DNA from: Candidatus Dojkabacteria bacterium
Lineage (GTDB): Bacteria > Patescibacteriota > Dojkabacteria > SC72
NCBI GenBank assembly: GCA_028694805.1
Contig: JAQVKD010000001.1
Coordinates: 25,549 to 89,548, forward strand
DNA: 64,000 nucleotides
Direction of reading: 5' to 3'
A model generated the notes under the pieces. That model ran no database searches and was not told the DNA's origin. It worked only from the letters and a program-made list of their open reading frames with translations. This document shows, piece after piece, positions 3,734 to 43,976 of the stretch. The first letter of the stretch is position 1. Each line of letters opens with the position of its first letter. The position numbers and the translations under genes were made by a program.

Positions 3734-3987
3734 ATGTTTGTGTAACGGAAAGTTATATTATTCTAATCTTCCAGAATAAATGTAATATCCTATTCCTATT
3801 CTTAGAAGTCTTCCTAACTGAGATGTAGAAGATTTGCATCCACTGAATATTATTGATGCAGCTCCTTCTATCATTAGAAATCCTCCTACATATTCTTCTG
3901 TTGTTGTATCCACTTATAAACCTCCATCATTTTAGTGATAATTTTGTATAATCTTTATTTCTAATTATATGATTTAATTAACATTAA

Positions 3988-4119
3988 TTATTCATCTTCA
4001 GTTTTAATAAAGCATAGTCCTTCGTTTGCTGCTTCACCTTTGTCTTTATGATTTTTCATTATGTATAGAGATTCGTACCACACATCAAAATATTGTCTTA
4101 AGTATTTATCTTCATTCAT
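3988..4119 (-). CDS. hypothetical small protein (43 aa), not in ORF track
   Basis: ATG preceded by GGAGGT at -8. Translation: MNEDKYLRQYFDVWYESLYIMKNHKDKGEAANEGLCFIKTEDE. Confidence 0.3.
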   Translation of the reverse strand: MNEDKYLRQYFDVWYESLYIMKNHKDKGEAANEGLCFIKTEDE

Positions 4120-4153
4120 ACACTAACCTCCAGATTGACTTATTATTTAGTTC

Positions 4154-4336
4154 TTAACCATTTGTAATGGTGTCGCTCATTTTTATTTCGACTCGAAAAT
4201 TTGTGTCGTACCATTCTTCAAAGTTGTATTTCTTGTTTTTTAATCTTTGTTGTTGATTATTTATATTAATGTAATTATGACATTGAATCCACATTTTACA
4301 AGGACACTTTCGTTCTTTACACCCATTAATTGACAC
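4154..4336 (-). CDS. small Cys-rich (zinc-finger-like) protein
   Basis: CKERKCPCKMWIQCH cluster with 4 Cys plus His in a 60-aa protein. Confidence 0.4.
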   Translation of the reverse strand: MSINGCKERKCPCKMWIQCHNYININNQQQRLKNKKYNFEEWYDTNFRVEIKMSDTITNG

Positions 4337-4360
4337 TTCACCTCTTTTTATAGTTAATTA

Positions 4361-4672
4361 TTAATCGTTATTTTTTCCTATACAGTCTAATTTATCTATA
4401 TCTACAGTTTTTAAAAATTTCTTTAGATATTTTCCTTGTGACGGGTCTTGCTTTATTAAAGCACATGTCAGTTCTGCTACATGTTCTTTTTCTTCATTCA
4501 TTACATGTGTAATTATTTTCTTAGATTCTTCATTATCAATGTTTTCAATTTGAGATTGATATAAATTAATTGCATCTAACTCTGCTATTATACCTGATCT
4601 CAGTAATTCTTGATTTGTAAATTTTTGATTGAGTTTATCAGATTTTTCCTTTGTTAAATTTACACATGTCAT
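4361..4672 (-). CDS. ferritin-like/rubrerythrin-like small protein
   Basis: DAINLYQ...EEKEHVAEL carries the E-x2-H di-iron-type motif of ferritin-like four-helix bundles. Confidence 0.4.
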   Translation of the reverse strand: MTCVNLTKEKSDKLNQKFTNQELLRSGIIAELDAINLYQSQIENIDNEESKKIITHVMNEEKEHVAELTCALIKQDPSQGKYLKKFLKTVDIDKLDCIGKNND

Positions 4673-4683
4673 TGATATTCCTT

Positions 4684-4896
4684 CTATTCTTTTCCTTGTA
4701 CGTGATTAAAAATTCTTGCAAATGTATAACCTATGAATGATCCCATTATAGTTCCAAATAATGTTTCACTTAGTTTTCCGGACATTAATGCTGTAGTAAG
4801 TGCTATTATAAATACAGAAATTATCATTCCTTCGTATTTTCCAATATCTTCCATAACACCGTGTTTTTTTGTGTTTGATTCTTCCATATTTACCAT
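4684..4896 (-). CDS. small membrane protein
   Basis: Two hydrophobic helices in 70 aa. Confidence 0.4.
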   Translation of the reverse strand: MVNMEESNTKKHGVMEDIGKYEGMIISVFIIALTTALMSGKLSETLFGTIMGSFIGYTFARIFNHVQGKE

Positions 4897-4929
4897 TTCG
4901 CCCCAATATCATGTAATACATAGATATTT

Positions 4930-5364
4930 TTAGTTCTCTTTTATCTCAGATATTTCATTTTTAAGTATAATTTCTACATCATCTGTTCTAAAAATTCCAT
5001 CAAAAGATGAGTCAAAAAAACTATCAGTTTTTCTATGTGCTTCTACAATAGAATTTATTTCTTCTTCTGAATTTCCATAGAAAGTATGTCTTACTACTGG
5101 ATGCCAATCGTTGTCATAATATTCACAAGTTGTTATTTTTAATTTTAAAGGTGGTTTTGTTACAATATTATTCATTCCTCCTGTTTTATTATATTGATTT
5201 TGTTGTCTGTAGTATAAACTCAATGTTTGTTGACGTTTTTTAATTATGTCATTATAAACATATAATCCAGCTATTGTTCCTATTATTATAACTGCAAGTG
5301 AACCTAATAAGAACTTAAAATCTCTTGTTGAAAGATTTTCTGATTGAGATTGAGATAATGGCAT
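4930..5364 (-). CDS. hypothetical membrane-anchored protein
   Basis: N-terminal TM FLLGSLAVIIIGTIAGLYVY. Confidence 0.45.
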   Translation of the reverse strand: MPLSQSQSENLSTRDFKFLLGSLAVIIIGTIAGLYVYNDIIKKRQQTLSLYYRQQNQYNKTGGMNNIVTKPPLKLKITTCEYYDNDWHPVVRHTFYGNSEEEINSIVEAHRKTDSFFDSSFDGIFRTDDVEIILKNEISEIKEN

Positions 5365-5381
5365 GATTGTTATTTTATTTC

Positions 5382-5672
5382 CTAACCATTTTTAATTACT
5401 TGATGTATATAACTTAGTTGTTTGTCAGATAAAGGATTCCATCTATTTAGTAGACTATCTGTATATTCACTTGATAAAACTCCAGATTTTTCTCTGTATT
5501 CTGTAACTGCTGCAGCAGCAGTTTTTGGTATTAAATATTTTTGAACTATGTACAAGGTTGTTATACTGGAGAACATACTCATAAGACTTCCAAGAATGAT
5601 ATTTCTTGTATCTCTGGCAAGAAGTTCTCTCTCTTTCTTTTCTTCTGCTTCTGTCATTCCTTTCTCAGCCAT
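5382..5672 (-). CDS. small TM protein, WxPLSxxEL-motif family
   Basis: C-terminus LLNRWNPLSDKQLSYIHQVIKNG. Confidence 0.5.
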   Translation of the reverse strand: MAEKGMTEAEEKKERELLARDTRNIILGSLMSMFSSITTLYIVQKYLIPKTAAAAVTEYREKSGVLSSEYTDSLLNRWNPLSDKQLSYIHQVIKNG

Positions 5673-5692
5673 AGTTACTCCTTGGGAATTTA

Positions 5693-6109
5693 TTATCTCA
5701 TTCCAAATAAATCTCTTGTTGTTCTCCTTATGTCAAGTAATGATGGAATTGCTGGTTGTGTATGTGATAGAGTTTTTAGTGATACTGTTTGTCTATCCTG
5801 CTGATTCTGATGAGAAGTCTGAATATTTTGATTTATTTGTGTTGATTTTACAAGACTATCAACTTTATTCTCAAGTTGTGATAGTTTTTGTTGTATTGTC
5901 TGAAGCTCTGTAGACGATTGCGATTGAAGTTGTTGATGATATAAATATTGTGGTGGGATTTCATCAACCATAAATCCATAACGTCTTCGTGCATCATATT
6001 GTGGTTCTATTGTGCTTTTGAAAATTAAGTAACCAAAGAAAATTATAGCTCCTAATCCAAATCCACATATAATTAGTTTTGTTATTTCATCTCTAGTGTC
6101 ATCTGCCAT
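5693..6109 (-). CDS. TM plus coiled-coil protein ending in GMR (YGMR-family-related)
   Basis: C-terminus RDLFGMR. Q-rich coiled coil and N-terminal TM. Confidence 0.5.
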   Translation of the reverse strand: MADDTRDEITKLIICGFGLGAIIFFGYLIFKSTIEPQYDARRRYGFMVDEIPPQYLYHQQLQSQSSTELQTIQQKLSQLENKVDSLVKSTQINQNIQTSHQNQQDRQTVSLKTLSHTQPAIPSLLDIRRTTRDLFGMR

Positions 6110-6149
6110 GATTATTGTTTAAACCTCCTCATGTTTTTAGTTATTATAA

Positions 6150-6320
6150 TTACTGTATCATTGCTTTTATGTTCTGTAATTCATCATTTGAAAGTGGTTT
6201 CCATTTACTCAGTAAAGTGTTGGTCTCTAGATATTCCTTAGATTCTTCATCACTTGCTCTTAAAGTTTCAAATAGTGTATGAAAGAGCATATACTCAATT
6301 GATAACATCAGTAATGACAT
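6150..6320 (-). CDS. small protein with KWKPLSNDELQNIK tail (56 aa), not in ORF track
   Basis: Own translation ends ...LLSKWKPLSNDELQNIKAMIQ. No clear SD, so the start is uncertain. Confidence 0.35.
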   Translation of the reverse strand: MSLLMLSIEYMLFHTLFETLRASDEESKEYLETNTLLSKWKPLSNDELQNIKAMIQ

Positions 6321-6342
6321 AATAGATCATTTAATGAATAAT

Positions 6343-6789
6343 TTATTTTTCACTCACAAATTCAAATGACTTATAAGTTGTGATATTTCTTATTTTGTTT
6401 ATTTCTTGTTCTGATAGTGGTTTCCATGTTGATATATCAATATTATATGTCGAATCCATTTTGTTTATTGAATCTAATTTCTCTGGTTTCTTTCCATTAC
6501 CCCCCATCATATACGGAGCAACATTTGGATTACATCTGAGCTTAAGATAGTATGCTGCATATAATGCTACTCCTGTTGCTACTGCTGCTATTGCTGCAGA
6601 TTTTCCCTTTTCATGATATACAAGATAGACTCCTGCACCAGTTGCTATAGCAGTTGCCAATCCAAGATCCATTGCAAGCTTAGCATTTTTATATTTAGGT
6701 TCATCATCTACGAATGTACTTGCTGTGAATAAAGATGAATTCCATGCACTCCATGCTCCAAATACTGCTGATGATGTTAGAACTGCCAA
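6343..6789 (-). CDS. TM protein, WKPLSxxEIN-motif family
   Basis: C-terminus ISTWKPLSEQEINKIRNITTYKSFEFVSEK. Ala/Gly-rich TM helices. Confidence 0.5.
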   Translation of the reverse strand: MAVLTSSAVFGAWSAWNSSLFTASTFVDDEPKYKNAKLAMDLGLATAIATGAGVYLVYHEKGKSAAIAAVATGVALYAAYYLKLRCNPNVAPYMMGGNGKKPEKLDSINKMDSTYNIDISTWKPLSEQEINKIRNITTYKSFEFVSEK

Positions 6790-6872
6790 ACCTAAATCTT
6801 GCTTTGTTTCTACAATAGTAATTCCTCCTTATTATTTTTTATTGATTTTTATCTATTATGATGATACATATA

Positions 6873-7253
6873 TTAGTTATTTTTAGATATAAATATTGAT
6901 GCTAACTTTTCAAGATACCACCTTGCAGTAAGCCCAGATACTATTGAAAGAACTGCTGCTCCTTCTAATCCCAGTCCTGTTTGATTTATTGCTGTCCATA
7001 CAACTGCTATTCCTGCAAGAAGTCCTGCTATTAGAGGCTGTCTCACATGTTCAAATTCATATACATTTTGTAACTCTTCATCTGTTACATCTGGGTTCTT
7101 TTCTTTCTCTTTCTTTCTTAGTGATTCATCTGCCATCTGATCTGCCCACCATGATGCTATTGTAGATAATATCGGTGATAAAATATACGATAAATAAAGA
7201 TATGTATCTGGTCCAATTAACAATTCTAATGTTATTCTTCCTGGTTCTATCAT
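6873..7253 (-). CDS. small polytopic membrane protein
   Basis: Three predicted TM helices. Confidence 0.45.
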   Translation of the reverse strand: MIEPGRITLELLIGPDTYLYLSYILSPILSTIASWWADQMADESLRKKEKEKNPDVTDEELQNVYEFEHVRQPLIAGLLAGIAVVWTAINQTGLGLEGAAVLSIVSGLTARWYLEKLASIFISKNN

Positions 7254-7292
7254 GTTATACTACCTCCTTTATATTGTTTATATCTCATACAC

Positions 7293-7985
7293 TTATTTAG
7301 CTTTAGATATTATTTGTTTTATTTTATTAATCTCATTAATCGAAAGCGGAGTCCATTCTAAATAAGTGTTTTTATTATTTGACGATTCACCTTTAATGTT
7401 ACTCAAGTTCCTTGAATTTAAATAGAATTTTCTTATTATATTTTGTCTTTCTAATTCTTCTTGTCTCTTTAGTTCCAGTTCTTCTTGTCTCTTTAGTTCC
7501 AGTTCTTCTTGTCTCTTTAGTTCCAGTTCTTCTTGTCTCTTTAGTTCCAGTTCTTCCTGTCTTTTTATTTCCATTTCCAGATATCTTTGTCTTCTTTTAA
7601 ATCTTCTCTTTCTATAGTATTCCATTTCTGAATAATCATCATACATTGATGAATTGTATACTGATAAAGGAGCTGAACTAGAACCTCCTGTTAGAATACT
7701 TGGTAGATTTATGTCTAATTGTCGTCCTTGCGGATAGTTTGTTAAGTCTATTGTTGTAGTTCCTGTTCCTCCGTTAGCTGTTATTTGTATAGAATCACCA
7801 TCTGTATATCCACTTGGAAAATTTGCACAATCTAGTGTATATGTTGAATCTGATTCTGATGTAACTGTTATCTGTTCAGATGTTGATAGATTTGTTGCTG
7901 TTACTGTAACTCCTGCTGAGCTTGCAATATTTATAGTTCCGTATATTGGATATGGAACATATGGAAACGGCACGTTATTATCCAC
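7293..7985 (-). CDS. protein with ELELKRQE x5 tandem coiled-coil repeat and WTPLSINEINKI tail
   Basis: Perfect 24-nt tandem repeat in the DNA. C-terminus LEWTPLSINEINKIKQIISKAK. Confidence 0.55.
   Translation of the reverse strand: MDNNVPFPYVPYPIYGTINIASSAGVTVTATNLSTSEQITVTSESDSTYTLDCANFPSGYTDGDSIQITANGGTGTTTIDLTNYPQGRQLDINLPSILTGGSSSAPLSVYNSSMYDDYSEMEYYRKRRFKRRQRYLEMEIKRQEELELKRQEELELKRQEELELKRQEELELKRQEELERQNIIRKFYLNSRNLSNIKGESSNNKNTYLEWTPLSINEINKIKQIISKAK
7455..7574 (-). repeat. 24-bp tandem repeat x5 (4 perfect plus 1 degenerate), in-frame coding repeat
   Basis: Unit ttcttcttgtctctttagttccag. Confidence 0.9.
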
Positions 7986-10900
7986 TCCATTGCGTTGGAT
8001 TGGTTACATATACAAAGAATGATTCGCCGACAGGAATAATTTCTGAACCTGTTGATACAAATGTTCTTGTTGTTTTATTGTAATGACTTGCTTGAGTTGC
8101 ACTTGCTCCTATATTTGATAATTCTTGAGATAATGTCATTGACTGATTTAAATTTCCTACTAGATTCCAGCCAGTGTTTAAAGTAATCGTTGGATTTGTT
8201 TCTATTACAAAATTAACTATAGTTGGGGCACTGAAATAATAATAATATCCTTGTTTTTGAGTCACGTTTACATTTTGATTCGGAGTAAATCCTGTTACAT
8301 GTGTTTCATATTTTTGCGTTGTACTGTTATATGTTCCTTGATTCAAATCTGTACTGAACATATTATCCAGTTGGAGAAGAGTTTTACTTGTATAATTCAT
8401 AGCTAAGAAACACCACCCTTTTGGACATGAAACTGTTGCTTCTAGATTTTGCTGGGTAATAACAGTATATCTAGAAGAATCAAATCCAGTGCTATTATAC
8501 GATATATATCCTGTAGTATTTGATAATGTATTAAAATCTTGAAATAATGTTCCATTATCCCAATAAACTTTCACACTATAATTTGAATTTATTTGCCTAT
8601 CACCTATTGTATATTGAACAGTGTTTGATGTATTTGTTGATGATTCATTAAATTGGACTTTATAATCACCTGTAGTATTCCATACTGTAATATTTACTGT
8701 AATATTATCTGATGATGGTGTAACAGTCATATTTATTGTATGATATCCGTTTGGTTCTAATGTATCATTATAAAGTTGAAGATATGTTGTTCCGTTAGAA
8801 AACACAGTTTGATTTTTGTTTAAACTAAATGTCGTTCCATTCCCATAAAAATAAAAGTCATAAGGAATATCTGTCATGTTTATTACACTACCATTTTTGT
8901 AAACCTTATAACTCCAAGGACGTATAGAAAAGTTGTTTCTCTCTAATATATAATCATAAAAATGAATCCACGCAGTACCATTAGCAGAATTTCCGTCCTG
9001 ATAAAAAGCATATGGTTCTTGATTTATGTTAGATATTATTCTATGAGGTGGGGTATAATACGAATAAGTTTTATTAACTGGTGTAACAACAGAAGTCACA
9101 TTAGTAAAGTTATTAGAAAAATAATATCTATTAATTCCTGTTAATCTTGGAAAATTATATGAAATTAGCCAATAATTAGTTAAATCTTGAGAAAAATTAT
9201 TCTCATTGTCTGTCCTTACTAAAACACTAACGTTCGGACCAAACAAATTGCTACTTATCGAAACATTATGTGACTCAAGAGATGAAATGATTGAGTAATT
9301 ATCATACTCTCCAACATAACCGTATCCTTTGGCTAATTTAGTAATTGATATACCTGATGGAGGAGATGTCCAATCATTGGTTATAGTAGAACTGTTTTTT
9401 ATTGTAACATTCATCAAATCAATGTAGTTTTCTGCTATTGTAATATTAGTTGCGTTAGTTATACGAAACCCAGATGTTCCTATATCTGTTAAATTGTTAT
9501 TCGAAATTGTTATATTATCTGAATTTAATATTGCTATCCCATAATCATACCCATCAGTATTATACGTAGTGTTAGAAATATTATTTTTAGTGATTGTGAT
9601 ATTTTTACTATACGTAGACATAATACCTACGTCAGTACCACTTATATTATTTTCAGTGATCAATATATTGTTGCCAGCAGTATTAAACGATACACCATAA
9701 AATTGGGAATTTAATATAGTGTTATTCCTTACAGTAATATTACTACTTGGGTTATCAGTTTCAACCTCTATTCCAAAGCAGTTTCCATAAAAGGTGTTAT
9801 TTTCAATAAGAGCACTTTTTGGTGAAGCATAACCTAAAATGAATATACCAGCATAATCAGAATAATTAATTATACTATTTTTTATGTTAAGATAAGGTAT
9901 AGTATACCGAATACCTGGTCTACTAGTACACGCATCTGCATAAGTACCAAAACTAGTGTATGGCATACCAGTAGAACTATTCCAAGAAGTTAATGTTGAA
10001 TTTGTGATATTAATAAATCCATATGTTATAAGACCGCTACCAAAAAGTATGTTATCATCATATTTAAGCGTTGTATTTGATATTTCAAGATGAGTATTAT
10101 TATAAATAGTAGGACTATTCTTTAATAAAATGCTATTATTATTTAATGTTAGTGTACCATTATATAAAACGAAATAATCATTAAGAGTAAAGTTTAAATC
10201 AGAACATGTTTTATCTGCTGTAACATTCCATACATCATAAACTGAACCACTTGGACAATAACTTGAACTTGTATTAACTGTAAAGTTTACCATACTTGAG
10301 TTAGTCATATCAGTTAGAGATTTTCCCCATACAGTAACATTATGAGCACCCTGTGATAAACCTGTTAATAAAGAACTATTACTTACACAATTACTACATA
10401 AAGTCGCATTTGGTGCACCGTCAAGAGAGTAGTTCATACCATTAGAACTTTGCTTATTAGTAATAGATACGTTCAAATATACAGAAGTGTTAAGATAGGT
10501 TCCGTTTTGTGGTGAAGAAATACTTATAATTGGTGGAAGAATAACAACCGTAAATGTATATTCTCCAGTTGAATTAACAAATCCAGTTTGATTTTGTACA
10601 TAAGCAGTTGCAGTATAATTAGTATCATCTGATAATCCTGTAAAATTGTTGGATATTGAATAATTTCCTGCATCAAAAGAAGCATTTATTTCAGTACTAT
10701 TTAGTTCTCTATTATACAGTCTAACTTCATCCATTTTACCTGAAAACCTATAAAACGTAGATAACCAAGCCCCGATATATTTTACACGATTAGTAGATGG
10801 AAACACCATATTATCTGTTGTTTGAGATGAAAATTCATCTCCATTTCTATACACAGTTACAGATTTATTTGTATAATTAGCCACAACAACCGTATGTATC

Positions 10901-31500: not shown

Positions 31501-32355
31501 TTATCGTTTTATTAACATCATTAATAAAAGAAATCCTGCAGCTCCATAAACATATGTCTTAGGTTGACAACCAAATCCTATGAATGATAAACAAAATTCT
31601 TTGGTTGGATCACATGATGGAACGCATCCTTGTGCTCCATCACCTCCTCCTGTACATAAATTATTACAGTTTGATGTCGTATATATACCAGATCCATCAC
31701 AGTTATCTGATATACATTGCGTTCCTATACATTTATATTTTGGAGTTGTACATGAAGGATTACAAACATTATTACAATTTGATGTCGTATATATACCAGA
31801 TCCATCACAGTTATCTGATATGCACTGTGTTCCCGTACATTTATATTTCGGGGTAGTACATGAAACACAAGATCCGTTCTGACATATATTAGTCGATGGA
31901 CATGCGTTACATCCGTATGTGCATGCAGGTTCTCCTAACCACTTGCATATTGTTTTATTATCTGCGCAGTATGTTTGACCACTTGTAGGTTGACATGGTT
32001 GAAATGAACCTACATTAAGTGATCTGCATGAATTAGGCGTTCCTGACGCTTCGCAGTACAGCGGAACTACCTGTACAAGATCAATGAAATAGTTTCCCAC
32101 TGAAGAGAGATAACCTATCACTGCATCAAATATATATGTTCCAGAGGAAGATACGTTCACACTATTACTGTTGACTGATGCATAAGTTCCGTCAGGTTTT
32201 TTATACCTGAACCATACATGAATAGAACCATATGCAGAGTCTGAATATAATCTTGCCTTACATCCAATCAAATCAGAACCAGATGCACTACACGAACTTC
32301 CTGATAACATGACTCCGCTTTTTGTGAATCCATAATCCTGTATTGTACAACCCAT
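31501..32355 (-). CDS. Cys-rich protein with duplicated TTPKYKC(T/I)GTQCISDNCDGSGIYTTSNCNN module and CQPKTY-TM C-terminus
   Basis: Exact 33-aa duplication. C-terminus EFCLSFIGFGCQPKTYVYGAAGFLLLMMLIKR. Confidence 0.55.
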   Translation of the reverse strand: MGCTIQDYGFTKSGVMLSGSSCSASGSDLIGCKARLYSDSAYGSIHVWFRYKKPDGTYASVNSNSVNVSSSGTYIFDAVIGYLSSVGNYFIDLVQVVPLYCEASGTPNSCRSLNVGSFQPCQPTSGQTYCADNKTICKWLGEPACTYGCNACPSTNICQNGSCVSCTTPKYKCTGTQCISDNCDGSGIYTTSNCNNVCNPSCTTPKYKCIGTQCISDNCDGSGIYTTSNCNNLCTGGGDGAQGCVPSCDPTKEFCLSFIGFGCQPKTYVYGAAGFLLLMMLIKR

Positions 32356-32429: not shown

Positions 32430-32603
32430 TTATATTATTCCTTTTTCTCTTACTATTTTCAAAGATTGTAAATCTATCCCTTCGATATCTTCAAGACTTA
32501 TTAATTCAGAACTTCCTAGCTGTCTTAGTACTGGAATCTGATGACTTAATACTATAAATCCTACAGCACCTACCAATACAAGCAACCAGTCTCTGCTTAC
32601 CAT
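32430..32603 (-). CDS. small TM protein, GIDLxSL family (paralog 3; 57 aa), not in ORF track
   Basis: Own translation MVSRDWLLVLVGAVGFIVLSHQIPVLRQLGSSELISLEDIEGIDLQSLKIVREKGII. Confidence 0.45.
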   Translation of the reverse strand: MVSRDWLLVLVGAVGFIVLSHQIPVLRQLGSSELISLEDIEGIDLQSLKIVREKGII

Positions 32604-32639
32604 AATATATTTCCTGTTATTAGTTGTTAATTTTCTCTA

Positions 32640-32846
32640 TTATATAAATCCTTTTTGTCTTGCTACATGTAAAGAAACAAGGTCAATTCCTTGAATATTT
32701 TCAAGCTTAATAGTAGATAAAGAATGAGATGTTGACAATGTAGCCGATAGCGAAGAAGCTCTTACCATCCCAGGTGAATATGCTGCGAGTAATACAGCTC
32801 CTAGTATTCCTACTCCAATAAGAATTGCGTCTGTTTTAGTTGGCAC
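32640..32846 (-). CDS. small TM protein, GIDLxSL family (paralog 2)
   Basis: C-terminus LENIQGIDLVSLHVARQKGFI. Confidence 0.5.
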   Translation of the reverse strand: MPTKTDAILIGVGILGAVLLAAYSPGMVRASSLSATLSTSHSLSTIKLENIQGIDLVSLHVARQKGFI

Positions 32847-32869
32847 TTATTTCACTTCCTTTGTTCTTA

Positions 32870-33097
32870 TCAGCTTGGGGGTTCTCCTATCCAATAATCA
32901 GGGTCACCTGGTTTTCTCTCATCTATTCCTGGAATGTGAAATCCGTAAGGATTTTCTACATCTTCTGTATCATTAGAACTGTTCTGCAAAGACATTGATG
33001 AAGATACAGGTCTAAATGCAGAGAAACGAGACATCAAGTATAGACCTGCAAACAGTCCAACTCCTACATAGAGTGCACTTCGTTCGATGTCTGCCAT
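32870..33097 (-). CDS. small TM protein
   Basis: TM YVGVGLFAGLYLM, acidic C-terminus. Confidence 0.4.
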   Translation of the reverse strand: MADIERSALYVGVGLFAGLYLMSRFSAFRPVSSSMSLQNSSNDTEDVENPYGFHIPGIDERKPGDPDYWIGEPPS

Positions 33098-33104
33098 GAC
33101 CTAA

Positions 33105-33737
33105 TCATCTCATTCCGTACATCTTATAGATAGGCGAATCTGCCTTGTCCGTTGCCATTTGACCGTAATATACCTGCCTTCTTATTCTCTGGTAATAATC
33201 TTCTGCAGGTAATATTGAAGGTGCTGCGTTAATTCTGTCTATTGAATTAACTTGTGCCATCGATTGCTGATGTGGGATTGCACCATAAGTTCTGTTAGAT
33301 GACTGGTTAGCCTGCTGTAATTGTTGTAATTGTAGTTGTGATTGTTCTTGCTGCATCTGAAGTTGTGATTGTGTTTGAGATAATTTCTGTTGCAATATTC
33401 TGTACTCTTTGCCTTGTAATGTTATGTTTACATTTGCTGGATTAACTCCTTTGTTTGTTAATCTAATAAGAACATCATACCCTACACTTCCTATTGCTGC
33501 TGCAGCTGCTCCATCAAGACCCATCTTAGTAAATAGATAATACAATCCAAGTTTTGGAGCATTATTAGCAGCTCCTGCTATTATTTTATCAGATGTAGCT
33601 GCAGTGTCTGGTAAGTTTGGTTTTATCTGTTGTTCTACATAACGACCGGAAAATCCACTTACTATGAATCCTCCGCCTATTACAGCCATGTCCTTTGCCA
33701 TTTCTGTATATCTTATTCGTTCTCTATATTCTGCCAT
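33105..33737 (-). CDS. YGMR-family protein (Gly-rich N-terminus, Q-rich coiled coil, C-terminal YKMYGMR)
   Basis: MAEYRER...GGGFIVSGFSGR...VLIRLTNKGVNPANV...YKMYGMR. Paralog of 38012..39055. Confidence 0.55.
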   Translation of the reverse strand: MAEYRERIRYTEMAKDMAVIGGGFIVSGFSGRYVEQQIKPNLPDTAATSDKIIAGAANNAPKLGLYYLFTKMGLDGAAAAAIGSVGYDVLIRLTNKGVNPANVNITLQGKEYRILQQKLSQTQSQLQMQQEQSQLQLQQLQQANQSSNRTYGAIPHQQSMAQVNSIDRINAAPSILPAEDYYQRIRRQVYYGQMATDKADSPIYKMYGMR

Positions 33738-33791: not shown

Positions 33792-33938
33792 TCTATCTTC
33801 CTCTTTTTCTCCTCTCTTCTTTCTTCGTAGTTGCTCGCCTTTGTGATGGCGTCATTTTTCTATACCACACAGAACCACACACTGCACCAGGATCTCGAAC
33901 TTTTCCCTTTTTTTTAACCTGGTTAATGCAACTTCTCA
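33792..33938 (-). CDS. small basic protein (48 aa from the internal ATG; possibly longer), not in ORF track
   Basis: MRSCINQVKKKGKVRDPGAVCGSVWYRKMTPSQRRATTKKEERRKRGR. An upstream SD-preceded ATG at 33964-33966 is out of frame by 1 nt in a C4 run. Confidence 0.35.
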
Positions 33939-33985
33939 TCCATCTTTTAGGTGGACGCTTGGGCATAAATTCCTCTCTGTAAAAC

Positions 33986-34174
33986 TTAAATTACAAAGTA
34001 TTTCATCAATTCATATGTACTTGGTGAAGGGCATGTTGCTTGGAATGATGCCATTTTAGTATTAAATGCTGCTGTATCAGCACACATTTTACTTCCTGCT
34101 CTCATTGATGCAAGGTACATTCCTCCGACTACTGCCGCTGCTGCTATAATAGCTGTTGTTTTCGTATCAGGCAT
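33986..34174 (-). CDS. small TM protein
   Basis: AIIAAAAVVGGMYLA helix. Confidence 0.35.
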   Translation of the reverse strand: MPDTKTTAIIAAAAVVGGMYLASMRAGSKMCADTAAFNTKMASFQATCPSPSTYELMKYFVI

Positions 34175-34256: not shown

Positions 34257-34997
34257 TTAAAACATCCTTGCATTTTTGTTACCCAATACATTTCTATGTA
34301 ACTTATTCCAAAGTGCTGGAAGTGAAACGTATTTAGTTTTCTTATAAAATTTTATCACTGCATCTTCATATCTATTCATGTCGTATTCTGCTTCTCCTAC
34401 AGTCTTACCTTCTAATAATGCCTTCAGAAACACTAAATGTATGTCACGAAATATATCTTGAGAATGTATACTATCTACAGGAAATAACATTAAATCTGTA
34501 TATCCACTGTAAACTTCAGCTCCATAACGTATAGCACATTTTCCTAATTGACTTGCGCTATAACATGCTACAGTAAACACTATTGTATCTTTTAATAAGT
34601 TGACATTTGTTTCGTTCATACACAATGGATTACAAATATCAGGCATTGCTAAACATGTGTTTACACACCCAGATGAATATATTAAAGGTTTAATTATTTC
34701 ACGTAAATTTGGCATGTTTAGTAACTCATCTATATCAAACTTTCTTGTTATTACACATTCGCTCTGTCCTTGAATGCTAGATGGACATCCATGAGAAAAT
34801 GTAACTACGAGTCTTGGTCTGTAATATTGCAAAGATTTTGTTACATTGTTATATGTGACTTCGTTTTTCTTTATGTCGATAACAGTGTAACCATAGCTTT
34901 TCATCATCTTGTATGCTTTCTCAGCCCAGTCATATGTATGAATTGTTGGATCGTTTTCCTTTCTAGGTCTTAAAAGAACTATTGTTGAATTATTCAT
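34257..34997 (-). CDS. putative caspase-like (clan CD) cysteine peptidase
   Basis: VVTFSHGCPSS (His-Gly) and VFTVACYSAS (Ala-Cys) resemble the clan CD catalytic dyad context. The fold assignment is inferred. Confidence 0.3.
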   Translation of the reverse strand: MNNSTIVLLRPRKENDPTIHTYDWAEKAYKMMKSYGYTVIDIKKNEVTYNNVTKSLQYYRPRLVVTFSHGCPSSIQGQSECVITRKFDIDELLNMPNLREIIKPLIYSSGCVNTCLAMPDICNPLCMNETNVNLLKDTIVFTVACYSASQLGKCAIRYGAEVYSGYTDLMLFPVDSIHSQDIFRDIHLVFLKALLEGKTVGEAEYDMNRYEDAVIKFYKKTKYVSLPALWNKLHRNVLGNKNARMF

Positions 34998-35016: not shown

Positions 35017-35556
35017 TTATTTCAGCTTCAATTCTTCTTTCCTAAAGTTTTCATTTATTACTTTATCTACATTTAAGTATAACTCCTCTTCGTCTCCTTC
35101 ATTTTTTTCAATTAAGATATTTTCAATATCAACAAATTGTTTAGCTTTATGTTGACAATTTGTTCCAGGATTGTTTTTTATCATACAAGTTACTTTTCCG
35201 TCCTTCGGTGAACCTATACAACTAACATCGTTTTGTTCATGGCAGTTACTGAATATGTCTAGTGCACTTGGTTCATCTGATGATGTTGTAACATGACTAT
35301 GAAATGTACCAACGGGTTTTTTTCCTCTTTCTCTGCATTCTGACTGAAATTTTATGTATCTTTCTTCACTATGAGAACTCTGAGAATGTTCTTGACCAGG
35401 ATATATCTTACTAGTTTTTTCATCAAGACATAAAGTAAAACCGTGTTCTTTATCAGTATCTTGAGTCTTTTCTATTAGCTTACTCATCTTTAATACTGTA
35501 GTGTCAGAAAAGACATATTTTCCAATTCGTTGATCTCTATGTTTGTTAGTTTTCAT
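35017..35556 (-). CDS. JAB/MPN+ (JAMM) metalloprotease-domain protein
   Basis: EHGFTLCLDE ... HSHVTTSSDEPSALD (E...HxHx8Sx2D). Confidence 0.6.
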   Translation of the reverse strand: MKTNKHRDQRIGKYVFSDTTVLKMSKLIEKTQDTDKEHGFTLCLDEKTSKIYPGQEHSQSSHSEERYIKFQSECRERGKKPVGTFHSHVTTSSDEPSALDIFSNCHEQNDVSCIGSPKDGKVTCMIKNNPGTNCQHKAKQFVDIENILIEKNEGDEEELYLNVDKVINENFRKEELKLK

Positions 35557-35559
35557 ATA

Positions 35560-36105
35560 TTAAAGTATCTTCTTACTCTTAAACTTCTTCTCTGTGAAAT
35601 TATCAACAGCGTTTAATAATGCAGTTTTCACTGTTTCTCTGTCTACAGGATCGATATATACATAAGTATCTTCGATGTCAACAAATGGTTTAGCTTCATC
35701 TTGACACGACTTACCTTGATTTCTTTTAATGTAGCACTCTATTTCTCCTTTTTTATTCATTCCTACACAATCAATTTTTGATTCTTCATCACAACTGCTA
35801 AGCAAGTCCATTGCTGAAAATCGAGTTTCTGATGGTCGTGGATGAGTGTGATAACTTCCAATATATTTATCATGCTTTCCTTTACAAGTTTCAGGAACCA
35901 TTATGCTTACATAATCCCCAACCGATGACTTCCCAGGAACCACCTTTCTATCCTCACTTAAACATAAAGCCATTCCATGTTCTTTTCCATTTACAGCAGT
36001 TTTATGATTAAGTTCATTCATCTCTCTAATTGTTTCTTTTGGAATGAAGAACGAATTAACTATTTCGTCGCCTGTCTTTTTAGTATGTTTAGTTCCCTTA
36101 TGCAT
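35560..36105 (-). CDS. JAB/MPN+ (JAMM) metalloprotease-domain protein
   Basis: EHGMALCLSE ... YHTHPRPSETRFSAMD is the canonical E...HxHx7Sx2D JAMM motif. Tandem paralog of 35017..35556. Confidence 0.7.
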   Translation of the reverse strand: MHKGTKHTKKTGDEIVNSFFIPKETIREMNELNHKTAVNGKEHGMALCLSEDRKVVPGKSSVGDYVSIMVPETCKGKHDKYIGSYHTHPRPSETRFSAMDLLSSCDEESKIDCVGMNKKGEIECYIKRNQGKSCQDEAKPFVDIEDTYVYIDPVDRETVKTALLNAVDNFTEKKFKSKKIL

Positions 36106-37283: not shown

Positions 37284-37316
37284 TATAGAGATATTGTATC
37301 CACAACAATATCTCTA
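37284..37316 (-). terminator. 13-bp perfect inverted repeat (7-nt loop) followed by a T-run on the minus strand
   Basis: atagagatattgt-atccaca-acaatatctctat. The minus strand then reads agaattttttatttg. Lies just downstream of 37336..37950. Confidence 0.5.
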
Positions 37317-37335
37317 TTTGCAAGTTATTATTGAT

Positions 37336-37950
37336 CTAACTTGTCCAGAGGTCAACTTCAAGAGCAAACTTGATATGGGTAGTGTCTATCTGTATATCAG
37401 GTAATATAGGTCCACCTGTTGGACTTTCACCGACTACATACAAGAACCAGTGCTCTTCACCATTCAACTCAATTCCTTGAGTGAATCTGTAATATTCACT
37501 ACTGGTCTTAAACTGGTGACCAAGCTGAGTACCGACTGCTGCTATTCTCTGTTTAGTTATTGACACATCCTGGTAGAATGGTCTTGCTAACTGAACAAGG
37601 TCTTCAGTTGTTTTCTCTTTGGTGATTCGTATTTTTGTCAGTGGACTGATTTCCTGATCTGTTGTGCCTGCAAGTCTGACTCTCAGTGCATGCGCAGTGT
37701 TGAAATCCTGTCCTGCAGGTACTTGCTGAGTACCCATAATTGACATCTTCTGCCCAGCTGGACATCTCACATCAATAACAGCAGTTGTATTTCCTACTGG
37801 TCCACCTGTCAAAGTTACTATTCTTGTGTTCTTTTCATCAAGAACAATCTGTGATCTTCTCCATCCCAAGCTTTCCAGATACTCCACATAAGAAGTATAG
37901 TCCGGTTTAGCACTTCTTCCGTAAGCCTGCATTGAATTTATTTCTGCCAT
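37336..37950 (-). CDS. putative structural protein, PLTKIRITK family (paralog 1 of 3)
   Basis: VIDVRCPAGQKMSIMGTQQVPAG...PLTKIRITKEKT...GPILPDIQIDTTHIKFALEVDLW aligns along its whole length with 43332..43976 and 42530..43090. Confidence 0.55.
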   Translation of the reverse strand: MAEINSMQAYGRSAKPDYTSYVEYLESLGWRRSQIVLDEKNTRIVTLTGGPVGNTTAVIDVRCPAGQKMSIMGTQQVPAGQDFNTAHALRVRLAGTTDQEISPLTKIRITKEKTTEDLVQLARPFYQDVSITKQRIAAVGTQLGHQFKTSSEYYRFTQGIELNGEEHWFLYVVGESPTGGPILPDIQIDTTHIKFALEVDLWTS

Positions 37951-38011: not shown

Positions 38012-39055
38012 CTACCTCATTCCGTACATGTCGTACATTACTCCAAGACCCTTGTCCTGCATTTGACCAAAGAATCTCTGACGTTCTGTCTTTTCAGTGT
38101 GCTGCTCAAATGGCATTGCACCATACGGCATCGAACCGAATTTTCTTTCTCTTTCTACAACCTGAGGACTCTGTTCAAATGGCATTGTGCCATATCTTCT
38201 CTGTCTCTCCATTACATCTGGAGTCCAGGGAAGCTGGTTTATTGGACCGATCTGCTGTGTAGCTCCTGGAGTATATCCTGTTTCAGGAAGCCACGGAATT
38301 CCTGCAGAATTTGGATTTGGCATTGCACCATATTCTCTCTGCCTTTGCTGAACTGCAGGACTTGCATCCCCAGCATACCTAAAATCTGCAGATGAATCTG
38401 CTCTGTAAGGTGTCTGTCTTACATAAGACCGATAGTCTTGCCACTCACGAGTAGCTGTCGGTGGTGTTGGAGCAGGTGGGTTCTGAATTATTGTTCCAGG
38501 TTCTGCTAATCCCTGTCCAGGAAATCTTCCAGGTGGTATTTCAGTTCCAGGCATTGAAGGAGATGGTGGATATGTTCCAGGTCCAGCTAATTTCTGAAGA
38601 GCTTTATTTAACTCTGTTCTCAGAATACTATTTTCTTGAACAAGCTTCTGTACAGTAGCTGGATTCATTCCATTTCCAAGTACTCTATATCCTGCCATTC
38701 TAACATCATAAGGATTAACTCCTTTATTTGCCAATCTCAGGACTGAGTCATACACAACAGAACCCGCAAGAGACTCTGCTGCCTTCTTTGCCATTGGATG
38801 CTTCGCATCAAATTTCTTTGCTAAGACATACGCACCAGCTTTGGCACCATTGTTAGCCGCCCATGCAAGAACTTTTTTAGTAGCAGATGATGTTTCATCA
38901 ACCTGTCCTGATGCAGTGGCTGAATCCTTAACAAGAGAAGTTTCTATTGCTCTTCCTATTGCACCGCCTACTATAAAGCCGCCACCTATTCCTATACCAT
39001 CGCCAGCAACTTCATTAGCAAATGCCTTTAAATCTCTTTCTCTATAATAAGCCAT
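38012..39055 (-). CDS. YGMR-family protein (Gly-rich N-terminus; RQRRYG/MPFEQ repeats; C-terminal MYDMYGMR)
   Basis: MAYYRER...GGGFIVGGAIGR...SVLRLANKGVNPYDV. Repeats ERQRRYGTMPFEQ, ERERKFGSMPYGAMPFEQ, ERQRFFGQMQ. Confidence 0.55.
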   Translation of the reverse strand: MAYYRERDLKAFANEVAGDGIGIGGGFIVGGAIGRAIETSLVKDSATASGQVDETSSATKKVLAWAANNGAKAGAYVLAKKFDAKHPMAKKAAESLAGSVVYDSVLRLANKGVNPYDVRMAGYRVLGNGMNPATVQKLVQENSILRTELNKALQKLAGPGTYPPSPSMPGTEIPPGRFPGQGLAEPGTIIQNPPAPTPPTATREWQDYRSYVRQTPYRADSSADFRYAGDASPAVQQRQREYGAMPNPNSAGIPWLPETGYTPGATQQIGPINQLPWTPDVMERQRRYGTMPFEQSPQVVERERKFGSMPYGAMPFEQHTEKTERQRFFGQMQDKGLGVMYDMYGMR

Positions 39056-39110: not shown

Positions 39111-39221
39111 TTACTTGCACGCACGAACTGCTTTCTTGAAAGCAGTTTTGCCGCCTCTTTTTCCTTTCAAGTGACGTGCCATGCAAGATTGAAATTTAGT
39201 TCTTCTTCGATGTCTTGCCAT
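39111..39221 (-). CDS. tiny Arg/Lys-rich protein P1 (36 aa), not in ORF track
   Basis: GGAGAT SD. MARHRRRTKFQSCMARHLKGKRGGKTAFKKAVRACK. Confidence 0.45.
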   Translation of the reverse strand: MARHRRRTKFQSCMARHLKGKRGGKTAFKKAVRACK

Positions 39222-39224
39222 CAA

Positions 39225-39326
39225 TTATCTCCTTCTAGATGAAAAGTCAGCACATCTTTTTCCGGCTCTTGTCCTTTTCATCCTAATACATCTTGAGCCT
39301 TTCTTCATTCCCTTCTTTCTTGCCAT
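39225..39326 (-). CDS. tiny Arg/Lys-rich protein P2 (33 aa), not in ORF track
   Basis: AAGGAT SD. MARKKGMKKGSRCIRMKRTRAGKRCADFSSRRR. Confidence 0.45.
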   Translation of the reverse strand: MARKKGMKKGSRCIRMKRTRAGKRCADFSSRRR

Positions 39327-39343
39327 CTTCGATCCTTAATTTT

Positions 39344-39415
39344 TTAGTATTTCTTTCTGCGCTTTCTGCACTTATCTTTTCCTTTTACTTTTCCGTATTT
39401 ACATCCTTTTGCCAT
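39344..39415 (-). CDS. tiny Lys-rich protein P3 (23 aa), not in ORF track
   Basis: GGAGGT SD. MAKGCKYGKVKGKDKCRKRRKKY. Confidence 0.35.
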   Translation of the reverse strand: MAKGCKYGKVKGKDKCRKRRKKY

Positions 39416-39417
39416 TG

Positions 39418-39516
39418 TTACCTCCTCTTTCTTCTTCCACCAACGAAATCAGCACACCGTCTTCCGACACCACGTACACGCTTATATCTAACACACTCTG
39501 CACCTTTCTTTGCCAT
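39418..39516 (-). CDS. tiny Arg/Lys-rich protein P4 (32 aa), not in ORF track
   Basis: GGAGGA SD 6 nt upstream. MAKKGAECVRYKRVRGVGRRCADFVGGRRKRR shares the RRCADF motif with P2. Confidence 0.45.
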   Translation of the reverse strand: MAKKGAECVRYKRVRGVGRRCADFVGGRRKRR

Positions 39517-39615
39517 ATCATTCCTCCTACATTGTTTATATTTGATTTATTTAAATCAATATTATTTATCTTTCAGAAAGGTCGTTTTTATCAATATAGT
39601 ATCACTGGAGAATTG

Positions 39616-39984
39616 TCATCTTATTTTTACCATATGGTGCTCCTCCCATTCTTGAATTGGGTGTAATACTATAAAAAGTTCTTTTTTCTTACATTTCATT
39701 TTCTTACCGTCAGTCTCAACATGACAACCTGCAACGACAATATGCTCAGCTACATCATATTTCTTCGTATAAGCATCTTCTGGATCTTGAAAAAGAACAG
39801 CCATATATTTATGTCTCTTACCATCAAACCCCTCTTCTTCAATCTCTTCAAATTCAGGAACGTCTATTTCCCCATCTACATCTTCAATGTAATCTCTAGG
39901 AAATGCTATATACTCTATTTCATCATTATCACGTTTATCTGTAATCCACAATGGATACTTGCACGGACAAGTTATGATTACCAC
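39616..39984 (-). CDS. hypothetical acidic protein
   Basis: 122 aa, CPC plus two His, acidic repeats. Confidence 0.4.
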   Translation of the reverse strand: MVIITCPCKYPLWITDKRDNDEIEYIAFPRDYIEDVDGEIDVPEFEEIEEEGFDGKRHKYMAVLFQDPEDAYTKKYDVAEHIVVAGCHVETDGKKMKCKKKELFIVLHPIQEWEEHHMVKIR

Positions 39985-42529: not shown

Positions 42530-43090
42530 TTACGGTAATTCCCACATATCTAAATCAAGGGTAAATTTAATTTTATTTACATTTATATCTACACTTGGTT
42601 CTATTGCATATATAACTAAATGGTCTTCATTTTTAAGTTCACAACTTTGTTCAAACCTATACAATTGAGCATTGTTCTTAAATTTTGGTTTTGTATCCAC
42701 ATGATTTTTAATGTTAATATCAGAATATTGCATCTTTCCAACTAAAATAATCGTTTCAGATGCTCTTTCTTTTTTTATATGTATTTTAGTAGTTAAATCA
42801 ATTTCATTATCATTATTGTCTAAAAGAATAACTTTTAACGAATGTGCAGCCTTTGGATCAGTGCCCTTTGGAACTTGTCCAACGCCATATACACTTATTT
42901 TCCATCCACATGGACATCTTATATCTATAACAGGTCCAGTACAGCCTTTACTTAAACCTGAAAGAGTTACCAGTCTTTTGTTGGCTTCATCAAGACATAT
43001 CTGATTTCTTATGCAATTATTACTTTCCATATATCTTATATATTCATCATATGTCCTGAAATTTGAATAAGTTTTCATCTTTACCTCCAT
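42530..43090 (-). CDS. putative structural protein, PLTKIRITK family (paralog 2)
   Basis: VIDIRCPCGWKISVYGVGQVPKG...LTTKIHIKKER...NKIKFTLDLDMWE. Confidence 0.5.
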   Translation of the reverse strand: MEVKMKTYSNFRTYDEYIRYMESNNCIRNQICLDEANKRLVTLSGLSKGCTGPVIDIRCPCGWKISVYGVGQVPKGTDPKAAHSLKVILLDNNDNEIDLTTKIHIKKERASETIILVGKMQYSDINIKNHVDTKPKFKNNAQLYRFEQSCELKNEDHLVIYAIEPSVDINVNKIKFTLDLDMWELP

Positions 43091-43344
43091 TAAAAATCAT
43101 CTACACGTCGAGCTATCTTAGATGGTTCAGTTTTAATATCTTTAGCTAGATATTTTATTTCATCAAGTTGTTTTTTTAATTTATTGTCTTTATACTTTTC
43201 AAGCAATGTCGAGTCTTCAGCCAGTTTTATTTTTAAGATTGCTCTTATTGCATTATCATCTAATAGAGACATTCTTCTAATATACTTTATATGGTTTTCT
43301 ATGAATTCGATTTCAGTGTCTTGTTCTGAGTTCATTTTTTCCAC
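43090..43344 (-). CDS. small helical hypothetical protein
   Basis: 84 aa, charged. Confidence 0.35.
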   Translation of the reverse strand: MEKMNSEQDTEIEFIENHIKYIRRMSLLDDNAIRAILKIKLAEDSTLLEKYKDNKLKKQLDEIKYLAKDIKTEPSKIARRVDDF

Positions 43345-43976
43345 CTATCTATTTCTAATGAGAATTTTATATGGTTAGAATCTATTTCTATGTCTGGTAA
43401 AATAATTCCTTCTTCACGAGTTTCACCTACAACAAAAATAAACAGATGATATTCTCCACATAGTTCAACGATTTCATTAAATCTATACCATCTTGAAACA
43501 TCTTTAGATTTTCCATTTTCATTGATACTAACATCAAAATAGCGTAGACTATCTAGTTGAACAATATCATCATATGCTGTCGCTTTGGTGATACGTATTT
43601 TTGTCAGCGGATGTACTTCAAATCCTTCTGTATTACATAATTCAATTCCAAGAGGATATGCTGTTCTTTGATCATCTCCCATTAGAACGTCTTGAGTTCC
43701 CATGATTGAATATATTTCTCCTGGAGGACAATAAAAATCGACAACACATGAAGTAATTCCAATGTGACAATCTCTAATGACAGCGTCCTTTTCAGTGAGA
43801 GTTTTATGAGTCATTATCCGACCCATACATTCCATATAATCAATGTAATTATTATAATTAATTTTATTTTCTTTCACAACTTCTCTTTTAATATCACATG
43901 GAAGTGTTTCTTTCTTGCCTACATATTTTTTGTACTCTATATAATCTTCCTCGGTTTCTATTCTTTTATTGAACAT
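43332..43976 (-). CDS. putative structural protein, PLTKIRITK family (paralog 3)
   Basis: VVDFYCPPGEIYSIMGTQDVLMG...PLTKIRITKATA...GIILPDIEIDSNHIKFSLEIDRW. Confidence 0.55.
   Translation of the reverse strand: MFNKRIETEEDYIEYKKYVGKKETLPCDIKREVVKENKINYNNYIDYMECMGRIMTHKTLTEKDAVIRDCHIGITSCVVDFYCPPGEIYSIMGTQDVLMGDDQRTAYPLGIELCNTEGFEVHPLTKIRITKATAYDDIVQLDSLRYFDVSINENGKSKDVSRWYRFNEIVELCGEYHLFIFVVGETREEGIILPDIEIDSNHIKFSLEIDRWKK

Follow-up and report, generated by a model that had tools for sequence, protein, structure and literature searches.

We examined a 64,000-nucleotide stretch of DNA (hereafter, the window) from a contig assigned to Candidatus Dojkabacteria (NCBI assembly GCA_028694805.1, contig JAQVKD010000001.1), in which four tiny open reading frames (ORFs) for strongly basic proteins lie head to tail on the minus strand at positions 39111-39516. 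In reading order, these are sA1 (39418-39516; 32 amino acids, MAKKGAECVRYKRVRGVGRRCADFVGGRRKRR; net charge +11, isoelectric point (pI) 11.7), sB (39344-39415; 23 amino acids, MAKGCKYGKVKGKDKCRKRRKKY; net charge +11, 52% Lys+Arg), sA2 (39225-39326; 33 amino acids, MARKKGMKKGSRCIRMKRTRAGKRCADFSSRRR; net charge +14, pI 12.0) and the last member of the array, sC (39111-39221; 36 amino acids counted from its ATG, MARHRRRTKFQSCMARHLKGKRGGKTAFKKAVRACK; net charge +14, pI 12.0). All four are ATG-initiated and begin with MAK or MAR, and they are separated by 2, 17 and 3 nucleotides, respectively. Lys and Arg together make up 39-52% of the residues, with net charges of +11 to +14 (+50 for the four peptides summed) and pI values of 10.4-12.0; the grand average of hydropathy (GRAVY) is -1.1 to -1.9, residues of the AILMFVWY class account for 22-31%, and no hydrophobic or amphipathic segment is present. 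Each peptide contains exactly two cysteines, with 12 residues between them in sA1 (Cys8/Cys21), 10 in sB, 11 in sA2 (Cys13/Cys25) and 21 in sC (Cys13/Cys35). sA1 and sA2 have G[RK]RCADF in common, as well as Arg-rich tails.

Upstream of each ORF we searched for a Shine-Dalgarno (SD) site by matching to AGGAGGTGA, which gave a 6-mer for sA1 (AGGAGG, 39528-39523, 6 nucleotides ahead of the ATG), a 7-mer for sB, a weak 4-mer for sA2 (AAGGA) and a 5-mer for sC. The SD of sB (GAGGAGG) is supplied by the terminal Arg codons of sA1 (AGG AGG), and that of sC (AAGGAG) likewise by the terminal Arg codons of sA2 (AGA AGG AGA). Because these two SD sites are embedded in the Arg codons of the preceding ORF, the arrangement implies translational coupling, and we read the four ORFs as genes that are translated independently of one another. 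An initial annotation of this DNA, made by a model from the letters alone, had described four head-to-tail Arg/Lys-rich ORFs of 23-36 amino acids with MAK or MAR starts, two of them sharing an RCADF-type motif and Arg tails, and all of this is borne out. Its gaps of 1-18 nucleotides were right as to close spacing and needed correction to the values above, and its view that all four SD sites are strong goes slightly too far, that of sA2 being weak. It had overlooked the conserved cysteine pair of each peptide and the presence of at least three unrelated families as judged by hhalign (see below).

To assess chance occurrence, small basic ORFs were counted on each strand of the whole window and compared with second-order Markov shuffles of the same strand. 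The minus strand holds nine such ORFs where 1.6 are expected, and five of them are preceded by an SD against an expectation of 0.09 ± 0.32; the plus strand holds none. This result shows that the array is real and non-random. A 120-amino-acid ORF on the plus strand (39293-39655) that overlaps the array was rejected as a gene, being a Leu/Ser/Phe-rich antisense shadow of the Lys and Arg codons.

Comparison with related genomes was centred on a 204-amino-acid capsid protein encoded downstream, for which 170 homologs were found at E <= 0.001, and 64 loci around these homologs were gathered (numbered with the prefix L). In 11 of the 24 loci whose upstream sequence extends over 2.5 kb or more, the same slot, that is the position upstream of the capsid gene and of the YGMR-like gene preceding it, holds one to seven tiny basic Cys-containing ORFs with their own SD sites; closer relatives carry arrays too. 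Across 40 homologous pairs, nucleotide differences at the three codon positions number 257/272/519, an excess at the third position, and the ratio of nonsynonymous to synonymous divergence (pN/pS) is 0.34 in the annotated frame versus 1.45 and 0.87 in the shifted frames. In the clearest pairs synonymous sites are saturated and amino acids hardly change: one pair has pS 0.57 and pN 0.02, and sA2 and its homolog in L003 retain 77% amino acid identity at pS 0.53 and pN 0.16. Start, SD, stop and Cys positions are kept across independent assemblies. By these comparative measures the four ORFs are real genes under purifying selection; the initial annotation had named a lack of reading-frame conservation as grounds for giving them up, and the frames proved to be conserved, both by pN/pS and by the arrays of relatives. 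The make-up of the array differs among close relatives, from C alone to B+C, B+B+C and B+A+C (letters denote the sequence families described below), as against A-B-A-sC here, which points to rapid duplication and loss. Gene callers have largely missed these microproteins: the exact sequence of sA1 is present in public protein collections, without a name (P0122), and by exact look-up sB, sA2 and sC have no entry in any such collection and are unannotated, so that three of the four are brought to light here.

The peptides that fill the slot fall into several short families. Family A (..GS.C[IV]R.K....G[KR]RCAD[FY]..) includes sA1 and sA2. Family B comprises peptides of 20-27 amino acids with the pattern C-x2-G-x7-11-C, in which C, G and C are invariant among 15 aligned members; sB, with C-x2-G-x7-C, belongs to it. 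The others are family C (..LRKARCVR..MAKGKGK..ARRACGVK), family D (46-54 amino acids with a ..VGRPKGKK.. core), family E (C.C....GKC) and family F (MKCC...AAKACKGKKG.AFRKCVKA). sC occupies the position that family C holds in relatives, is aligned poorly with that family by MAFFT and has weak similarity to family F (hhalign probability 55%, E 1e-4). Genomes without tiny ORFs fill the slot with two proteins of about 100 amino acids carrying four cysteines each, one with a pI of 10.1-10.7 and the other of 8.4-9.4. By hhalign (probability 92%, E 7e-7), family F has a relative in the tail of the former protein (..KAKAMKAC-AGKKGC-EF.SC..RKACG; tail group G). Because hhalign found no relationship between families A and B, nor between family C and the G tail of the ~100-amino-acid slot proteins, we keep these families distinct, and the four ORFs would thus represent at least three unrelated or very diverged mini-families that are alike in charge, size and cysteine pairs. 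Profiles of families A, B and C searched against all PDB chains at E <= 10 returned only two unrelated weak matches. Identity with ribosomal proteins (bL34, bL36, bS22 and similar) or another known small protein is ruled out by these profile searches, and Pfam gave none. Family B (C-x2-G-x-H-R-N-x-K-T-G-R-C) had also been suspected to be the 2-cysteine adaptor of the nucleocytoplasmic large DNA viruses (NCLDV); Pfam lent this no support and we do not claim it.

Family A proved to be a module that also exists in multiple copies within longer proteins. The module reads CVRYKRVRGVGRRCADF in sA1 and CIRMKRTRAGKRCADF in sA2. A profile of sA2 and sA1 searched against 1.84 billion representative proteins gave only ten matches at E <= 0.001, several of which are longer proteins with two to five tandem modules: P0123 has five copies in 298 amino acids, P0128 three copies in 93 amino acids at a pI of 12, and P0127 three copies together with a family F/G motif. 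Over 20 instances, the consensus of about 16 residues is C-[VI]-R-[FY]-K-[RM]-T-x-[AG]-G-[RK]-R-C-A-x-[FY], a C-x11-C module in which C1, K5, G10, C13 and A14 are invariant. Back-translated, the module pattern matches two contigs classed as viral by IMG/VR, one of 81.5 kb with three genes of two or three modules each and one of 25.6 kb in which the module is bordered by runs of seven to eight arginines (R7-R8); both are GC-rich, and their likeness to the window consists of the module and one 33-residue blastp match only. In L070 (IMGVR_UViG_3300005253_000051, 3034-9170) and L066 (8001-11736), GC-rich viral or mobile contigs unrelated to the window, genes with two to three modules alternate with multi-copy acidic proteins of about 250 and 130 amino acids, and in L066 the module genes are followed by a Gly-rich membrane protein, a layout that echoes the operon of the window. 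No identity for the neighbours of the module genes in L066 and L070 was obtained from PDB sequence search, PHROGs or phage tblastn. For sA2, the one peptide with a beta-hairpin prediction, an AlphaFold2 model built on a two-sequence alignment consists of a beta-hairpin (residues 12-19 and 22-29) between disordered basic tails (mean predicted local distance difference test score, pLDDT, 71.7; core ~82-85).

The array lies within a capsid operon whose order on one strand is four microproteins, YGMR gene, major capsid protein (MCP) gene and hairpin. The YGMR protein (38012-39055, minus strand), product of the second-to-last gene, begins with a Gly-zipper segment, contains a coiled coil and carries ER.R+[YF]G.M repeats towards its C-terminus; it matches no Pfam or PHROG family and is putatively a membrane-associated protein of the virion. 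In almost every locus, a homolog of it immediately precedes the capsid gene. MCP 1 (37336-37950, minus strand) is the 204-amino-acid protein, a vertical single jelly roll, and the operon is closed by a terminator-like hairpin (37285-37317, minus strand; 13-bp stem followed by a T-run). Two MCP paralogs, detected by hmmsearch with an MCP profile, lie on the same strand at 42530-43090 (E 7.6e-53) and 43332-43976 (E 1.1e-43), which places the array inside a structural block. The initial annotation had proposed an operon with the YGMR gene and a downstream structural gene that ends at a hairpin; the single strand and the hairpin, read here as 37317-37285, are consistent with this, and the structural gene is the single-jelly-roll MCP.

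Directly upstream of the basic slot is an acidic four-Cys protein (39616-39984, minus strand; pI 4.86; C6, C8, C87 and C98), which matches nothing in Pfam or PHROG. A homolog precedes the basic genes in 31 loci, and we speculate that it may be a partner or chaperone of the polycations. The second YGMR paralog (33105-33737) is likewise preceded by a basic two-Cys gene, orf5 (33793-33966, minus strand; 57 amino acids, MPKRPPKRWM..., pattern MPKRPPKRW...C...P..VCG..W). The initial annotation had listed it as a fifth basic ORF in the same genomic context, correctly as regards the paralog; its bounds of 33792-33938 followed an internal Met start, and the protein belongs to a different family. Homologs in L001, L003 and L008 are 45-51% identical; the protein is less basic in relatives, which have many acidic residues, and the public entry is a hypothetical protein (MDD3474343.1); judging from its sequence, we treat orf5 as a separate family and do not group it with the array. 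The two YGMR paralogs share a conserved coiled coil (VQ.L.QENS.LR.ELNKA), ER.R+[YF]G[AFS]M repeats and a ..YGMR C-terminus; conceivably, a protease cuts at the repeats or the capsid is bound through them.

The window as a whole is viral in character. All large ORFs lie on one strand, in 64 kb of contiguous virus-like genes, with no tRNA, rRNA or Rfam match in the window, and the recognisable genes are of viral type (D5-like primase-helicase, S8 protease, beta-helix tailspike-like proteins, GH18, glycosyltransferases and PEGA domains). The source contig measures 128,474 bp and relatives lie on contigs of 173-179 kb (128-179 kb for the capsid-gene relatives). No packaging ATPase, such as the FtsK/A32 type expected beside the MCP genes of a sphaerolipovirus-like virus, was recognised, there being no ATPase domain among the 40 window ORFs scanned in a window that takes in roughly one half of the 128-kb contig. 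IMG/VR yielded no relatives, either in single-protein scans with two neighbour proteins or in an MCP alignment scan, and the 6-kb region had no blastn match among INPHARED phages. The window seems to come from a tailless virus with a large genome that has not been described before and that has three single-jelly-roll MCP paralogs. By analogy, this virus would presumably have an internal membrane.

The nearest known capsids are those of the Sphaerolipoviridae, the Simuloviridae and viruses like Thermus phage P23-77, which have vertical single-jelly-roll MCPs and at least two paralogs, as found here. [quoted passage not shown] To our knowledge, no basic-microprotein arrays have been reported for these three groups of viruses.

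Among proteins that package viral DNA, the closest architectural parallel is P64 of ascoviruses, an abundant virion protein that condenses genomic DNA and carries one to six two-Cys motifs together with Arg-rich stretches (PMC6163548). The ascovirus/iridovirus P64 type and the proteins described here share a short two-Cys motif in multiple copies with basic stretches between them, the motif here being family A in one to five copies with Arg-rich linkers. The motif of the P64 type, PF08793 (virus-specific 2-cysteine adaptor), is unmatched here, and P64 is a 64-kDa polyprotein with Ser/Arg phospho-switch repeats, whereas the window has separate single-module genes of 23-36 amino acids without such repeats. 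Viruses with the P64 type are eukaryotic, and the association of the window is prokaryotic, with bins of CPR (candidate phyla radiation) or DPANN. In addition, NCLDV capsid proteins are double jelly rolls and the capsid here is a single one. We therefore regard the likeness to P64 as architectural and possibly functional, with homology unsupported.

Protamine-like viral proteins offer a second comparison. Adenovirus mu and VII and baculovirus P6.9, which are considered to condense or neutralise genomes, are rich in Arg and Lys, as are the window peptides, which are very small, have a pI above 10 and lack a hydrophobic core. P6.9 is small (6.9 kDa) and adenovirus VII larger (198-residue precursor); mature adenovirus mu, at about 19 residues, is comparable in size to the window peptides. 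There is no sequence similarity between the window peptides and adenovirus VII or mu or P6.9. The viral protease releases adenovirus VII and mu from longer precursors, whereas the window peptides are primary translation products, and unlike all three comparators the window peptides have a conserved Cys pair and Lys mixed with Arg. A third likeness, to AT-hook/HMGA proteins, concerns only family D of the relatives' arrays, where K/R-flanked, AT-hook-like cores (..RKVGRPKGKK.., ..GRPKGSK..) resemble the HMGA hook PRGRPKGSK; it supports DNA binding by association within the array.

We propose that the microproteins are protamine-like partners in DNA packaging that neutralise or condense the genome within the virion, a reading to which we assign a probability of about one half. 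It is suggested by the position of the array in the capsid operon, the GRPKG cores of family D in an AT-rich genome (33% GC), the poly-Arg fusion forms and the precedent of P64, and also by the extreme charge of the peptides and the basic four-Cys proteins of about 100 amino acids that fill the slot elsewhere. The microproteins, the membrane-associated protein and the MCP would be made together from one late operon, for which we infer co-transcription and high expression, and the microproteins would then be packaged alongside the genome. In the virion they would bind the DNA, neutralising and bridging its phosphates in the manner of baculovirus P6.9 and other small, Arg-rich proteins of protamine type from eukaryotic viruses. 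Family A peptides would supply a short beta-hairpin module between disordered Lys/Arg tails, and the conserved Cys pair may either stabilise each module or cross-link peptides through disulfides or a shared metal. As a matter of arithmetic, 128,474 bp correspond to about 257,000 phosphate charges, 10-100% of which would be neutralised if each peptide were present in some hundreds to some thousands of copies. Adenovirus packs 500-800 copies of protein VII (PMC8156859), in the same range as this estimate. The suggestion of the initial annotation that these are protamine-like or virion DNA-binding proteins thus gains partial support, from charge, operon position, the GRPKG cores of sister peptides, the poly-Arg multi-copy modules and P64, with the function itself still a prediction.

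Several observations weigh against this proposal. Phages are generally thought to neutralise their DNA by cations and polyamines, not by proteins (PMC3281028). Scanning Pfam and PHROG with the five small ORFs, with ten relatives and with the ~100-amino-acid slot proteins and the multi-module proteins returned nothing usable, the small ORFs of the window matching no family at E <= 10 except for two sub-threshold PHROG matches. PF08793 was not found by hmmscan against Pfam-A in the window ORFs, relatives or multi-module proteins, a search whose sensitivity is limited by very short queries. The Pfam scans gave no AT_hook match either, and the GRP core is missing from sA1, sB, sA2 and sC. Near the capsid gene, the tiny ORFs are missing in about half of the related genomes and are hence not indispensable in this form. 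The bins of relatives are inconsistent (Dojkabacteria, Pacearchaeota, Micrarchaeota and 'uncultured bacterium'), and this scatter over CPR and DPANN does not fix the host, nor consequently the redox or metal setting of the cysteines. Finally, the strand boundaries of the AlphaFold2 model, as distinct from its coordinates, would imply a register in which the two cysteines do not face each other.

An unlikely but serious alternative is that the peptides bind nucleic acid inside the infected cell and not in the virion, acting in compaction or silencing of the host nucleoid, in RNA or ribosome binding or in late gene regulation. The charge arguments hold equally for such a role, the conserved acidic gene upstream could encode a partner, and in their length and residue make-up, small basic proteins that begin with MAK or MAR are similar to small ribosomal proteins. 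It fits poorly with an array placed in a capsid operon that ends after the MCP, with the lack of likeness to ribosomal or other PDB chains (family profiles, E <= 10) or to Pfam, and with the multi-copy poly-Arg versions, which look like bulk polycations and not like specific regulators. We give somewhat less credence to an assembly glue, in which the cationic peptides would link an internal membrane of negative charge with the DNA or with the inside of the capsid. VP11 of P23-77, a basic minor capsid protein, has a comparable role in this scenario, and the array stands directly upstream of the Gly-zipper membrane-type protein and the MCP, with small transmembrane proteins clustered nearby. Known viruses with such a capsid protein have an internal lipid membrane according to the abstracts of the ICTV profiles. 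Against it, the peptides are devoid of a hydrophobic or amphipathic segment, and rapid copy-number turnover and poly-Arg fusions point to electrostatic action in bulk more than to a fixed, symmetric site in the capsid; the idea also overlaps with genome packaging, from which it differs mainly in emphasis.

The remaining explanations carry little weight. Size, charge, two cysteines and a predicted beta-hairpin give the peptides a superficial likeness to Cys-stabilised hairpin antimicrobial peptides, and one relative has a weak Pfam match to Ponericin (E 0.034), so that secreted or released cationic peptides with antimicrobial or lytic activity come to mind. We think this very improbable: the Ponericin match is sub-threshold and spans 12 residues, the peptides have neither a signal peptide, an N-terminal hydrophobic segment nor a hydrophobic face, in keeping with their AILMFVWY content and strongly negative GRAVY, and the genes sit in a capsid operon rather than a lysis cassette. 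Least probable of all is that the ORFs are not genes but arose by chance, are the remains of a larger gene that has broken up, or serve only as regulatory upstream ORFs. In favour of this, their length is very small, public protein collections lack three of the four and none has a family match; against it stand the excess of SD-preceded ORFs over the Markov expectation, the conservation across independent assemblies of starts, SD sites, stops and cysteines while synonymous sites are saturated and pN is low, and the module embedded in longer proteins, which a purely regulatory upstream ORF leaves unexplained. As far as sequence analysis reaches, this last explanation is refuted.

If the microproteins do package the genome, they would have a role that has not been established in any virus of a prokaryote. 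Condensing the genome with proteins is regarded as peculiar to eukaryotic viruses, and a conserved and fast-evolving protamine-like battery in the capsid operon of a prokaryote-associated virus would challenge this divide between phages and eukaryotic viruses. It might also help to explain why the genomes here are four to six times larger than those of known members of the capsid lineage. More tentatively, we can imagine a lineage of large-genome (~130-180 kb), single-jelly-roll viruses in anoxic communities of small cells (rich in CPR and DPANN) that package their DNA as a peptide-DNA 'chromatin' of rapidly diversifying two-Cys polycations of 20-60 residues, maybe cross-linked through the cysteines. 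Such packaging would be a counterpart, convergent or very anciently related, of the P64-type core proteins found in relatives of eukaryotic giant viruses, and would clearly exemplify the condensation of a prokaryotic virus genome by proteins. Virus-encoded protamine-like core proteins were already known; what is new here are the sequence families, the modular two-Cys motif and the virus lineage. The compact 16-residue two-Cys module is now defined and open to direct synthesis and assay.

Upstream of the array, the leader of the operon (39517-39615, minus strand) is AT-rich intergenic DNA and a candidate promoter, containing AGATAAATA at 39571-39563 and TTTAAATA at 39555-39548, the latter within a short AT palindrome. 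The arrays of the close relatives L051 and L003 have a AGATAAATA-like element upstream as well, at about the same distance. TTTAAATA, at 39555-39548 and again at 34213-34206, stands exactly 39 nucleotides upstream of a start codon in both places, with the SD TAGGAGGAA common to both. Matches to TTTAWATA, considered as a possible archaeal TATA element, number 17 versus 14 on the two strands, without bias, and 7 of 17 are intergenic against an intergenic share of 11%, in a genome that is AT-rich. In the loci with ~100-amino-acid slot proteins (L004, L015, L017, L019, L027, L042 and L043), a conserved GGCAnTTATGCC-AAAGTAAAATA element precedes the SD upstream of the first basic gene. The leader elements and this one may be late promoters or operators, which might serve to tell an archaeal from a bacterial host.

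Further genes lie on the other side of the capsid operon. A 246-amino-acid ORF (34257-34997) contains 'FSHGC' and 'VACYSA', resembling the His/Cys dyad of clan-CD cysteine proteases, and has no Pfam match; beside it are two tandem JAB-like ORFs (35017-35556 and 35560-36105; Prok-JAB, sub-threshold). From their sequences, these three may encode maturation proteases of the structural block. A run of ORFs of 57-75 amino acids with one hydrophobic segment each (32430-33097 and 33986-34174) supplies candidate virion proteins of an internal membrane, and a 284-amino-acid Cys-rich protein (31501-32355) is duplicated internally almost without change (TTPKYKC.GTQCISDNCDGSGIYTTSNCNN.C) and ends in a hydrophobic anchor. 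In the related loci L004/L005 (1-3492), the capsid module is preceded at a distance of a few kb by a TnpB/IS605-type gene and by a glycosyltransferase gene into which an intein (LAGLIDADG) is inserted.

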